This document shows, piece by piece, positions 2 through 55,629 of a stretch of DNA of 64,000 nt; the first letter of the stretch is position 1, and every line of letters begins with the position of its first letter. The stretch comes from an uncultured Candidatus Bathyarchaeia archaeon. Lineage in GTDB: Archaea > Thermoproteota > Bathyarchaeia > 40CM-2-53-6. Below the pieces are notes generated by a model that ran no database searches, had not been told where the DNA came from, and saw only the letters and a list, made by a program, of their open reading frames with translations. The stretch covers positions 6,360 through 70,359 of the forward strand of contig CAYMZN010000002.1 of assembly GCA_964394935.1 (NCBI GenBank), in the 5' to 3' direction. The position numbers and the translations under genes were made by a program.

Positions 2-352
2 AAGGCAATCAATCCGCTCTCCCTTGAAGGCCAGATCGAAGGCGGAGCTATCCAAGCATTGGGATATGGCCTGATGGAACAGCTCATTCACGTCGACGGA
101 ATTGTTGCCAACCCTACTCTGGGGGACTACTATATTCCAACCTCGCTTGACATACCGGAGATTCAGACAATCATCGTCGAATACCCAGGACCAATCGGAC
201 CGTTCGGAGCAAAGGCCATGGGAGAACCACCTGTAGATCTACCGGCCGCTGCCCTTGCGAATGCAGTTGCACACGCTACGGGCTCAAGAATATTCAGTAT
301 CCCTCTCACGGCTGAGAAAGTCCTCTTCGCAATCAAAGACGACCAACAGTGA
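2..352 (+). CDS. Mo-hydroxylase large subunit (xanthine dehydrogenase / aldehyde oxidoreductase / CoxL family), C-terminal fragment; the 5' end lies outside the window
   Basis: The frame is open from the window edge. Translation KAINPLSLEGQIEGGAIQALGYGLMEQ...FGAKAMGEPP matches the conserved C-terminal block of molybdopterin-binding subunits. Track ORF 59..352 is only the part after an internal TTG. Confidence 0.75.
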   Translation, partial: KAINPLSLEGQIEGGAIQALGYGLMEQLIHVDGIVANPTLGDYYIPTSLDIPEIQTIIVEYPGPIGPFGAKAMGEPPVDLPAAALANAVAHATGSRIFSIPLTAEKVLFAIKDDQQ

Positions 353-12490: not shown

Positions 12491-12827
12491 TCTCGACCAT
12501 GGGAGGAACTTGGCTCAGTCACCTTCATGAACCTCGAAGTTGCCAGCGCATCGATCCTGAGATACTGTGGTGTAAGTCATTACGCCAAACTCGACCGAAG
12601 AGACAACAAAGAACTCCTCTTCTGGTGGGTCATAGCCTACCGTTGGCCTGCTCCAACTCTCTGGCGAAAATGCTGATTCCCTAGATCGTTGTAGGCTTGG
12701 GACCTGTCACATCGCTTGTGTGCGCCTTCCGAGAAGCATGGTAATCCTCAGTAGAGATCAGTAAAGCACGAAAGATCATGCGCCCGGGGTGGGATTTGAA
12801 CCCACGCGGCCCCAAGGGCCAACAGCT

Positions 12828-12850
12828 TACTTGGCCCAATTCATTGTGAT
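12828..12850 (-). other. putative tRNA intron 2 (23 nt) at canonical position 37/38
   Basis: Removal yields the loop CUCGAGA. Only a relaxed BHB forms: the central helix CUCG/CAAG has one C-A mismatch and there is no clear inner helix. Confidence 0.45.
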
Positions 12851-12857
12851 CTCGAGG

Positions 12858-12890
12858 TTCAACGCCAAAGCACATCGAAGCGCTGAGGCT
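12858..12890 (-). other. putative tRNA intron 1 (33 nt) at non-canonical position 30/31
   Basis: BHB motif: central helix CGAC/GUUG, bulges AG|A and AA|C, inner helix GCC/GGC. The predicted cuts coincide with the junction needed to build the anticodon stem. Confidence 0.6.
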
Positions 12891-12945
12891 CTGTCGCCGT
12901 ACCTGGCTCGGCAACCCGGGCTGCACGACCGGATGCTTCCACACG

Positions 12946-12953
12946 CATAAATG
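12946..12953 (-). promoter_or_regulatory. TATA-like box upstream of tRNA-Ser
   Basis: The minus strand reads CATTTATG, ending about 24 nt before the tRNA 5' end. This is typical archaeal promoter spacing. Confidence 0.45.
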
Positions 12954-13258
12954 TCGTTCTCTGGAGGTCTGCGACTCCCCTGTTGCTCAGCATAGGGGGT
13001 GGACTTTCAATAATCCTGTCTGTTCCTCATGCAGCCTTTCCGTGAAGATGTATTGGTCTGTGTACGATTCCTTGACCTCCAGAGTGAGGATGCTGCGAGT
13101 GGACGGCGGTGAGGGGAATGCTAATCACATATCTCGCACAAAGCGAAATCGACGATTGACATAGCCCATCCTAGCCCAGCATGTGACGGGCTTCAAAATA
13201 GGCTTAAGATATACCTACCATCGAAACTTGCGAGGGCCGAACAGCCAAGAGATCGCGA

Positions 13259-42216: not shown

Positions 42217-43570
42217 TCATTGTCGGATCTTGATGTACTCGTAGGCTGACCGTGCGGTCTCGAACGCGTAGTGCACCTTCTGGAAATCCTTGCGGAACAT
42301 CGCAACATCGGCCTTGACTCTTCCAGGAGGTTCCTTGTCGACGATCACGCGTTTGATGAACTCGGCCACCTCGACCATCTGTGACCGCTTCATGCCGAGA
42401 CGCGTGATCTCCGAGACGCCTATGCGTATCCCGCCAGGGTTCTGGTAATGTCGTCCGGCCTGAATGTCGCCTGGAAGTAGTTGTCGGTTCACAATTATGT
42501 TCGCCTTCTCCAGAGTCCTCTCAATGTCTCCTCCGAGGCCGTACTTGCTCGTATCAACGGCGATCTGATGCGATTTCGTGAATCCTTTGCTCTCCGCAAG
42601 TGTGTTCAGGCCACGTTCATGCAACGCTTGCCCCAGTGCTTGAGCGTTTGCAACGATCTCGGATGCGTACTCGCGACCGAACTCTAGCATCTCTGCAAAC
42701 GCGACGGCCTTCCCCGCGACGGTGTGAAGGTGATGGTTGCTCGTGTTTGACGGGAACGTGGCCTTCTTGATCTGTTCAGCATACTTCTCAAATGAGACGA
42801 CAGCACCGCCCTGAGGGCCGAAGAGGGTCTTGTGTGTGCTCATCATCATGATGTCCGCGCCCTCCCGGAGCGGGTCTTGGAACTGTCCACCCGCGATCAG
42901 TCCAGAGACGTGAGCCGCATCGTATGCAACCGTGCATCCAACCCCGTGGAAATATTCGGCGAGCTCCTTGACCGGGTGCGGAAAGAGGAACAGGCTTCCC
43001 CCAAATGTTGCAAGCTTTGGACCCTTCCCATCCTTGATCATCCTGTCAACTCTGCCCTTGGTCTTATCGGGATCGATGTTCATCTCGTTCCGGTCAAAGA
43101 CGAAGTACTCCACGTCGAGGCCGTGGACACTACCGGCGGTTCCGTTGAAGTCCCTCTTTCCCATGGAGATGTGACCGCCGCTCGGGATCGCCAAAGCCAT
43201 CATGACATCTCCGGGGGACGTGAACGCCGTGTAGGCGACCAGGTTGGCACAGACACCAGACACCGGGCGGACATCAACGAACTCTGCACGGAATAGCTGC
43301 TTCGCTAGGTCAATGCAGATCTGCTCGACCTGGTCAATGTACACGCATCCAGCGTAGACTCTCTCCCCAACCCAACCATGCAGAGGCTCGGCCACGAAGG
43401 CACGACGCCTATTCTGCGTAGCGGTTACCGAAGTCAGAAATCACTGCTTCGCGGACCGCCGGGCTGGGAACGTTCTCGGAAGCAATTAGCGGAATGCTCT
43501 CCGAGAACCAGCTGTGATGCTGCTCGAGCAGCTCGAAGACCTTCTCATACGAGCTCCTGGCAGAACTCAC
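42217..43570 (-). CDS. glyA: serine hydroxymethyltransferase, interrupted by a 34-nt BHB-type intron (exon 1 43412..43570, exon 2 42217..43377)
   Basis: Exon 2 holds GCVYIDQVE, VRPVSGVCAN, the STHKTLFGPQGG PLP-Lys block and HHLH. Exon 1, in another frame, encodes MSSARSSYEKVFELLEQHHSWFSESIPLIASENVPSPAVREAVISDFGNRYAE and then stops at TAG. The spliced product is 439 aa. Confidence 0.85.
43378..43411 (-). other. putative bulge-helix-bulge intron in glyA mRNA
   Basis: RNA: ...CUAC[GCAG](AA|U)[AGGC]GUCGUGCCUUCGUGGCCGA[GCCU][CUGC](AU|G)GUUGG... It has a 4-bp central helix, two 3-nt bulges on opposite strands and a 4-bp inner helix. Cuts after the second bulge nucleotide join GAA|GGU in frame. Confidence 0.7.
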
Positions 43571-53658: not shown

Positions 53659-55629
53659 CTATTCCTGGAGAAACACTTTATCGGTATGAAGAACGAGCTT
53701 TCCCGTCTGAGGATCGCGTCTCATGATGCCGAAGGCTTCTATCCTCATTCCAGCAAGCTTCCCAGTGGCATCTATGGGTAGAGCTACGGTACTCGTCCTT
53801 TTCGTTAATATTTCTTTCTGAGCCCAACTCACACTCTTGCCAATCAGACTCTGCGGGTCCTTTGTTCGGACCTTCGCGACGATTGTGTCGGTTCCATCAT
53901 CAAGCCGCATGTGTGCTGAAAGTAACCAAGCCGGTTGGGCCTGAACACCGTGAGTCGGGCATACGAATTGGTCGTCAGAGGGAGCAACTGGTTCTTCACA
54001 TTGACTGCAGACAGAAGCAAGGGCCGCATCCTCTCCCGCATCGAGGACTATTGCTCTGACCCAGACTTGCTCATTCTCTTTCAACGCGATGAAGTTGCGG
54101 ATTTCGTTTGAAGGGGGATGCTCATCTCTAGTGTGAGCCAAGACCTCAAGGTTCGATGCTTGAACCGTATTTAGTTCGGTTTTCTCTGCTAGGCCAGGTC
54201 TAGGCAAGAGGCCGTAGACTCGGATTCTAGTGCCGGTTCGAAGTTTGCCGGCCTCAGCCGCGTGTGATCTCCAAAATGAGACCCTCGCCTCGCCCGTATC
54301 GTCGCGGATCTGAGTTGATGTTACTTGAACCTTCTCGCCTTTCGCAGTCGTCACCTCCCTGCTCTCAGGTTCGGCAACGACTTCCCCTTCTATCGCCACG
54401 AGTTCCGAATTCGACCTAACCTCGCCGATCTTGCTGATCTTGACGTTGACCGTCTCGCTTGTGTCTTCCACTCTCTGAACAAGGGCCGTCCTTCCTACGC
54501 TCACCGAGACCTGCCCAAGCCTAAGGCTCGGCATAGCATCCTCTATTCGAACAATGTCGCCTGCTCTCAGCTGGGACGCAAGTTCGGCCTTGTCGTCCCA
54601 CAATGAAACGGAGACTATTCCTGTCTCATCGCCAACAAGTATCCGCGAAATCGCAACCCTCTCACCACTCTTTCGCTTCACCTGTTGCAGGCTACTGACT
54701 CCAACAACACGTGCCACTAAATTCGCAGTTGGCAGGTTGGGTTTCAGTTCACCAATCTTGTGGAGCCTTATCTCTGGGACCTCGAAACCCTTGGGCGGAC
54801 TCTCAAGAAGGACGGCTTTCGTTCTACTCTCTAGGTGAATCTCAAGTCGACCGGAGTTGTCTCGGCGTAGCCTACCATTACGAATTCTAAGAACGTCACC
54901 CCTCTTGAGGTTCCGCAGTTCCTCCGCTCTCTCATTCCAGGCGACGATGGGCATAGACCCCGTCTTGTCCGCGAGCATGGTCCTGAGCACTGTTCCCCTC
55001 TGTCCGCTCCTGTCGAACTCGTAGAGCCTGGGTCTAGAATGGACGATGCCTAGCAGATTGAGTTCGATGGCCGGTTCTCTTACGTCTCCTATCAGCGTAA
55101 TCTCGACTTCAGGCTCGGATGCTACTGCGATCTCGCTTCGTTCGCCTACGTTGAGTTCGACTTCGCCTGTGAGACCGGCACGTGTGTAGCCATGTCTAAT
55201 CGTGATCGATCTTCCGGCAAGGTCGCCGTGCTTGAGTATCTCTTCAACCTTCGTATCCCAAACAATGCAGCTGATCTTTCCAGTTTCGTCGCCGAGAAGA
55301 ATCTTCACAACGCGCCCAGTTGAGCCGTCCTGGCGAACAAAACTCTTCAAGGGTTCAGCGGTTAGGACCTTTCCGGTCAGAGTGATGTCGTTCAATCCGG
55401 CGACAAGTTTTCGAATCTCGATGCTCGGGGCGGCGGTTGGTTCTGTTTCAATGAGTAGTTCCTCTGCCACGAGTCTAGCGGATCCTTCATCTGAAAGCAG
55501 GTCTTGAGCTTCTCGCCTCTTCTCTTCAATGAGGTCTTGAACCTGCTCGCGTGTCAAGTCCTTCCGGTGGGCTAGGATCTTTGCAATGAGGTATTCCATG
55601 GCGCCCAAGTTTTCTTCTCCGATGAGCAT
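53659..55629 (-). CDS. replication protein A-like ssDNA-binding protein (multiple OB folds plus a zinc finger)
   Basis: Four repeated OB-like units (ITLTGKVL..., LNLLGIVH..., ANLVARVVGV..., VAIEGEVV...) and CSQCEEPV..(13)..CPTH. Confidence 0.8.
   Translation of the reverse strand: MLIGEENLGAMEYLIAKILAHRKDLTREQVQDLIEEKRREAQDLLSDEGSARLVAEELLIETEPTAAPSIEIRKLVAGLNDITLTGKVLTAEPLKSFVRQDGSTGRVVKILLGDETGKISCIVWDTKVEEILKHGDLAGRSITIRHGYTRAGLTGEVELNVGERSEIAVASEPEVEITLIGDVREPAIELNLLGIVHSRPRLYEFDRSGQRGTVLRTMLADKTGSMPIVAWNERAEELRNLKRGDVLRIRNGRLRRDNSGRLEIHLESRTKAVLLESPPKGFEVPEIRLHKIGELKPNLPTANLVARVVGVSSLQQVKRKSGERVAISRILVGDETGIVSVSLWDDKAELASQLRAGDIVRIEDAMPSLRLGQVSVSVGRTALVQRVEDTSETVNVKISKIGEVRSNSELVAIEGEVVAEPESREVTTAKGEKVQVTSTQIRDDTGEARVSFWRSHAAEAGKLRTGTRIRVYGLLPRPGLAEKTELNTVQASNLEVLAHTRDEHPPSNEIRNFIALKENEQVWVRAIVLDAGEDAALASVCSQCEEPVAPSDDQFVCPTHGVQAQPAWLLSAHMRLDDGTDTIVAKVRTKDPQSLIGKSVSWAQKEILTKRTSTVALPIDATGKLAGMRIEAFGIMRRDPQTGKLVLHTDKVFLQE

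Follow-up and report, generated by a model that had tools for sequence, protein, structure and literature searches.

On the minus strand, positions 12781..12921 of the window (by which we mean the whole stretch of 64,000 nucleotides that was analysed, itself part of an 86-kb contig from a Bathyarchaeia metagenome assembly) carry four arms of a class-II tRNA (acceptor, D, variable and T) but no contiguous anticodon arm. Is this a functional gene whose anticodon arm comes together by splicing and, if so, which tRNA does it specify? Judging from sequence comparison, and with a probability that we put at roughly 0.9, we take it to be a functional Bathyarchaeia tRNA-Ser(CGA) gene with two protein-spliced introns of the BHB type, whose expression, splicing and mature sequence we infer. 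Its predicted product, a class-II tRNA of 85 nt with G73, would read UCG codons. As to the host, the gene for the PolD small subunit lies 2.5 kb away and has its named relatives in Bathyarchaeota.

The minus strand of the locus reads GCCCGGG UU GCCG AGCCAGGUA CGGC G ACAG / AGCCUCAGCGCUUCGAUGUGCUUUGGCGUUGAA / CCUCGAG / AUCACAAUGAAUUGGGCCAAGUA / AGCUGU U GGCCC UUG GGGCC GC GUGGG UUCAAAU CCCAC CCCGGGC G. The acceptor stem (GCCCGGG/CCCGGGC) is followed by the discriminator G73, the 4-bp D stem (GCCG/CGGC) carries a 9-nt loop, the variable arm (GGCCC-UUG-GGGCC) consists of a 5-bp stem and a 3-nt loop, and the T arm is GUGGG-UUCAAAU-CCCAC. These arms, together with the coordinates of two introns (Table 1), had been proposed by the first-pass annotation, and all of them were found in place when the sequence was re-read. 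Excision of the 33-nt and the 23-nt segments leaves three exons of 31, 7 and 47 nt, which together give an 85-nt RNA with the arm ACAGC-CUCGAGA-GCUGU. ARAGORN in its default mode, that is, without introns, calls this 85-mer tRNA-Ser(cga) with a 5-bp variable arm, and the spliced molecule combines a long variable arm, G73 and the serine anticodon CGA, in keeping with the established identity rules for tRNA-Ser (class II, G73). An 87-aa ORF that spans 12681..12944 had been dismissed as spurious, and rightly so as far as can be judged, given that the gene calls of the source contig do not include it and that the intron lengths of the orthologues break its frame. CCA is not encoded 3' of G73; in the orthologue group to which the window belongs (acceptor GCCCGGG), the bases that follow instead are CAT, CTT or CCT (window 12778..12780), and in a group with the acceptor GCCGGGG (e.g. 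L007, L010, L014) CCA is mostly encoded directly after G73.

Table 1. Predicted features of the tRNA-Ser(CGA) locus, from upstream to downstream on the minus strand.
Feature	Window position	Strand	Remarks
TATA-like box TTTATG	12946..12951	-	putative promoter of archaeal type, 25-30 nt upstream of where the mature tRNA starts
Exon 1, positions 1-30: acceptor 5' strand, D arm, G26, anticodon-stem 27-30 ACAG	12891..12921	-	near-invariant in 22 orthologues
Intron 1, 33 nt, between positions 30 and 31	12858..12890	-	BHB motif; pre-tRNA 32..64 = window 12890..12858
Exon 2, CCUCGAG, positions 31-37	12851..12857 (anticodon CGA 12852..12854)	-	invariant in 22/22 orthologues
Intron 2, 23 nt, canonical 37/38 site	12828..12850	-	relaxed motif; pre-tRNA 72..94 = window 12850..12828
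Exon 3, positions 38-73: anticodon-stem 3' strand, variable arm, T arm, acceptor 3' strand, G73	12781..12827	-	

How much weight can the perfect anticodon arm bear? The arm does form exactly as had been claimed, but it is not unique to these two excisions: because the anticodon stem is short of only one base, 65 two-intron solutions yield a stem of 5 bp together with U33 and a purine at position 37, and the anticodons that they produce include UGA, UGU, AGU, UGG and others. The perfect arm was for this reason rejected as proof. A plain scan for BHB motifs as evidence on its own was dropped as well, since too many motifs are expected by chance (about 29 loose ones, defined simply as a 4-bp helix flanked by 3-nt bulges, occur within the 141 nt), and it was replaced by a test on fixed junctions. 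In the pre-tRNA, 4 of 6431 junction pairs combine a 4/4 central helix with at least two outer and at least three inner pairs, and one of these four is exactly the junction that completes the anticodon stem. Neither the BHB motif nor the perfect stem proves the solution by itself; it is their coincidence that is unexpected by chance.

The same analysis bears on the possibility that the gene, still with two introns, has another middle exon, the best candidate being ACAG + CGUUGAA + AGCUGU, which would give tRNA-Ser(UGA). Such a reading can draw on the 65 combinations mentioned above and on the good conservation of the CGUUGAA segment. Against it stands, first, the fact that among the 65 solutions none with a different intron-1 junction has a BHB motif, the closest reaching a 4/4 central helix with 0-1 flanking pairs. 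Second, CGUUGAA reads CGUCCAA in two orthologues (L023 and L030), which would place the anticodon CCA on a serine body. Third, shifting the intron-2 junction upstream brings the variable last bases of the intron, pyrimidines among them, to position 37 or into the anticodon itself. We therefore regard a different middle exon as extremely unlikely.

It is the comparison of orthologues that decides the splice solution in favor of tRNA-Ser(CGA). A degenerate pattern for the 3' half, applied to one genome per GTDB species, returned 25 loci, to which one metagenome scan added two more; the tRNA orthologues all come from Bathyarchaeia MAGs. Among the 22 distinct Bathyarchaeia precursors (genomes and metagenomes), both insertions are present at the same two sites in every case; the placement of intron 2 at 37/38 also stands as first proposed. 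The precursors reduce to seven mature sequences, and one identical 85-mer accounts for 14 of the 22, even though the introns range in length from 23 to 38 nt (intron 1) and from 23 to 27 nt (intron 2) and have interiors that differ freely. Ten exon columns vary, four of which make up two compensatory pairs, 4:69 (C:G to G:C) and 13:22 (G:C to U:A). Across the orthologues the cloverleaf is paired in 97.9% of cells, as compared with 29-55% when the partners are slid, and four pairs change on both sides. Two diverged exon groups can be distinguished, and both hold the two introns at the same sites. Taken with the ARAGORN call on the spliced 85-mer, the 22 orthologues bear out both the splice solution and the Ser(CGA) identity that the first-pass annotation had put forward.

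Matches to the 3'-half pattern in other phyla are all tRNA-Ser genes and are all uninterrupted; outside Bathyarchaeia, the hits in Thermoplasmata and Parvarchaeota have the anticodon GCU and that in a bacterium has GGA. The archaeal genes, tRNA-Ser(GCU) without interruption, contain the contiguous string GGCGACAGCCUGCUAAGCUGUUGG and share GGCGACAGCCU...AGCUGUUGG with the spliced window RNA, and the spliced 85-mer aligns with them base for base apart from one gap of 1 nt. Rfam gives these GCU genes scores of 53.7 and 59.4 bits and detects the uninterrupted tRNA-Ser genes of L015 and L020. An allele that lacks intron 1 (an "empty site") was not encountered in the scan of JGI metagenomes, in which a gap of 0-25 nt was allowed at the intron-1 site; the scan produced just the two further orthologues, both of them intron-bearing, with introns of 23 and 25 nt.

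The surroundings of the gene are preserved too. Relatives with 72-75% identity in PolD share the order of the neighbouring genes (thioredoxin reductase, CBS, ..., NUDIX, PhoU, PolD small subunit), and in these relatives the tRNA-like segment occupies the same intergenic gap. Furthermore, every orthologue has an A/T-rich hexamer (TTTATG, TTAATA, TTATTA or TAAATA) about 25-35 nt before the start of the tRNA. These observations, together with the exon comparisons, speak against a tRNA pseudogene, decaying or without function, in which the insertions would never be spliced. One could argue for such a pseudogene from the failure of standard detectors to find the gene and from the lack of a strict BHB motif at intron 2. 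However, the exons of the two diverged groups are under strong purifying selection, with 14 precursors converging on one mature sequence and compensatory changes in the stems; the BHB-forming ends of the introns are conserved as the interiors drift; and the TATA-like box upstream and the surrounding gene order are retained. A pseudogene thus seems very unlikely to us.

For intron 1, the first-pass annotation had described a good BHB motif at the non-canonical site 30/31, and each of its elements was found as described. The central helix pairs C25-G26-A27-C28 with GUUG near the 3' end of the intron (4/4), the bulges are A29 G30 | A and A A | C31, and the inner helix GCC/GGC, 3 bp long, runs into a small distal hairpin; an outer helix of 2 bp (G24:C32 and G23.U33) competes with the last pair of the D stem. 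The cuts predicted by this motif, two bases into each 3-nt bulge, match the 30/31 junction. All orthologues have the motif, with 87.5% of cells paired as compared with 29-49% for slid partners (14 distinct junction sequences); for the central helix alone the paired share is 98%. In L023 and L030 GUUG is changed to GUCC, such that a G.U pair becomes G:C and one pair is lost. Three pairs of the inner helix change on both sides, for example from C:G to U:A, and the hairpin deeper in the intron, whose sequence is entirely different between lineages, still forms a helix. Neither the cloverleaf nor the BHB folds are recovered when precursor and mature RNA are folded by minimum free energy; the G+C-rich sequence prefers non-cloverleaf pairings (minimum-free-energy, RNAalifold), and these predictions are uninformative on the splice motifs.

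A challenge to a serine identity comes from ARAGORN run with introns allowed (-i). A different single-intron solution with a better score from a tRNA predictor had been named beforehand as one result that would refute the proposal, and in form ARAGORN -i does offer a different single-intron solution, labelling the window locus (12780..12921) and 20 orthologous loci tRNA-Pro(TGG) with an intron of 59-74 nt; the model is, however, clearly the worse of the two. The proposed tRNA-Pro(UGG) gene, with one 65-nt intron in the window, is called in 20 of the 22 orthologues, and the bases that it uses are conserved. Nevertheless, its anticodon stem contains an A.G mismatch and a G.U pair, two bases separate the D and anticodon stems, and position 37 is a C. 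tRNAs carry a purine at position 37. Moreover, the intron would lie between positions 32 and 33, with no BHB motif at the junction (35..99), the 5-bp variable arm would be dissolved, and the cloverleaf energy would be -27.4 kcal/mol for Pro as against -44.2 kcal/mol for Ser. It is established knowledge that G73 and a class-II body do not fit tRNA-Pro. Finally, CCUCGAG and AGCUG would fall within the supposed intron, and yet both are invariant in the 22 orthologues in which the adjoining bases vary. Since ARAGORN models one intron only, we consider the Pro(UGG) call a forced artefact, and the probability that the gene encodes tRNA-Pro is in our view close to negligible.

Other detectors say little at this locus. 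Rfam at the gathering threshold reports nothing in the whole window and, at permissive E-values over 12700..13000, a T-arm fragment of 14.5 bits and nothing else; the introns defeat the tRNA model. Default ARAGORN, likewise, has nothing at 12781..12921. Its one call in the window is a "tRNA-Pyl(cta)" at 54096..54170 on the plus strand, which falls inside a gene for a 656-aa OB-fold (RPA-like) protein on the opposite strand (53659..55629). As no Rfam tRNA match reaches the gathering threshold at 54096..54170 and no pyl genes lie nearby, this call is probably a false positive.

Intron 2 of the tRNA-Ser(CGA) gene is a different case, for which a relaxed motif had been claimed and is indeed what we find. 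For an outer helix it depends on the 5-bp anticodon stem, and this stem can form only after removal of intron 1. Next to this stem lies a proper 3' bulge, UA|A (NN|A38 in the orthologues), whereas the central helix between C32 U33 C34 G35 (CUCG) and CAAG has three of four pairs, with the C34.A mismatch in every orthologue. A regular inner helix is missing, and the 5' site falls in an irregular loop. Such a motif is compatible with the relaxed hBH form, not with a strict BHB. The dinucleotide that precedes the 3' splice site differs among orthologues (UA, CA, UG, AA, AU, AC), and A38 is invariant. With the first base of the intron and the first base of exon 3 both being A, the junction could equally be read as 37/38 or as 38/39 with the same product; BHB geometry favors 37/38. 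Because the outer helix of intron 2 requires the removal of intron 1, it is likely that intron 1 is spliced first and intron 2 second. This kind of nested dependence is handled in tRNAscan-SE 2.0 by iteration (PMC8450103).

A further feature of intron 2 is the conserved segment GGGCCAA, which is complementary to U43-U44 and the 5' strand of the variable arm (12831..12837 with 12816..12822 on the minus strand, or pre-tRNA 85-91 with 100-106). All seven pairs of this helix are formed in the 22 orthologues, in G:C, G.U and A:U variants, and structure predictions for the unspliced RNA contain this helix. Neither the anticodon stem nor the variable arm nor the splice motif of intron 2 can coexist with it. 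It is conceivable, even if we think it rather unlikely, that the two introns are not neutral passengers and that the GGGCCAA fold acts as a checkpoint that would enforce ordered splicing or delay the folding of the serine-specific variable arm. If true, the alternative fold would amount to an intron-encoded control of tRNA maturation.

Taken in sequence, the maturation of this tRNA can be pictured as follows, with the order of the cuts deduced from which helices can form. Transcription would start from the TATA-like box about 30 nt upstream, and EndA would then cleave within the BHB motif of intron 1, after the second base of each 3-nt bulge and thus exactly at 30/31. Joining of the exons by an RtcB-type ligase would create the 5-bp anticodon stem ACAGC/GCUGU, which could in turn serve as the outer helix of the relaxed motif, such that intron 2 would be cut at 37/38 and its flanks ligated next. 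Because CCA is not encoded, we propose that it is added post-transcriptionally. Neither EndA (PF01974/PF02778) nor RtcB (PF01139) is among the genes called in the 9.4-64 kb portion of the window. [quoted passage not shown]

Two further observations concern splicing in this lineage more generally. In two orthologues, L023 (1157..1336, plus strand) and L030 (1503..1682, in reverse-complement coordinates), a third intron of 46 nt interrupts the T arm, and ARAGORN finds no tRNA in either. Its junction is ambiguous over 59/60 to 63/64, with a good BHB motif at 59/60 only, where the 5-bp T stem forms the outer helix, the central helix has three of four pairs, the bulges are AA|U and AC|U and the inner helix has 6-8 bp. 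Elsewhere in the window, glyA (serine hydroxymethyltransferase, 42217..43570) contains a 34-nt insert with an in-frame TAG at 43378..43411 on the minus strand, which the first-pass annotation had cited in support of the tRNA introns as an mRNA intron. The insert does look real, its BHB motif being strict (central GCAG/CUGC 4/4, bulges AA|U and AU|G, 4 inner and 2 outer bp) and its removal giving a 439-aa protein that is colinear with the M. jannaschii SHMT across the junction. Relatives at 90-93% identity mostly have intact 439-aa genes, one of them (L035) without exactly these 34 nt, and in L036 an identical insert is found between flanking codons that differ. It thus looks like an mRNA BHB intron that only some of the relatives carry, a rarer kind than a tRNA intron; PMC2738675 describes cbf5 as an example of an mRNA BHB intron. 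From the 59/60 introns and the strict BHB of the glyA insert it follows that BHB-flanked inserts recur in the lineage, and both point to an endonuclease that cuts at non-canonical positions and accepts relaxed motifs.

There are practical consequences for annotation. A gene that detectors miss or mislabel may leave Bathyarchaeia genomes seemingly without a UCG-reading tRNA or with a spurious proline tRNA. Such mis-annotation distorts estimates of the tRNA complement and of genome completeness, and pipelines that rely on ARAGORN -i would assign the wrong isotype across Bathyarchaeia.

How does the locus compare with what is known? Introns at 30/31, and genes that carry the canonical intron plus one or two non-canonical ones, have been described for Crenarchaeota, Nanoarchaeota and Thaumarchaeota (PMC4090602, PMC8450103), so that the position and the multi-intron layout are already on record and the mechanism is not new. 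A literature search on tRNA introns or the EndA type of Bathyarchaeia returned no specific paper. The closest parallel is with the multi-intron tRNA genes of Thermoproteales and other Crenarchaeota, which likewise combine one canonical with at least one non-canonical intron per gene and have BHB or relaxed hBH/HBh' motifs at their junctions; for Pyrobaculum islandicum tRNA-Pro(UGG), introns at 25/26, 37/38 and 56/57 are given (Sugahara et al. 2007, 2008, as relayed in PMC4090602). Unlike in Thermoproteales, the host here belongs to Bathyarchaeia and not to Thermoprotei, and, in contrast to introns that were described there as recently transposed, both introns of the tRNA-Ser(CGA) gene are at the same site in every orthologue found. 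A second parallel is offered by the tRNA-Lys(CUU) of Nanoarchaeum equitans and Staphylothermus, which is split at 30/31 (PMC4090602). The break in the anticodon stem is the same, and positions 25-28 hence form one strand of the central helix; the tRNA-Lys, however, is split and joined in trans, whereas here a cis intron of 23-38 nt interrupts a serine tRNA. The locus also resembles a known TACK-superphylum lineage outside Thermoprotei in which non-canonical tRNA introns are frequent and are missed by general-purpose detectors. The gene extends a multi-intron tRNA layout that is well documented in Thermoproteales and Thaumarchaeota to a class that is widespread in sediment and soil, with intron positions that are stable rather than recently acquired. 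The one particular trait of this gene is that two diverged exon groups have both introns fixed at identical sites.
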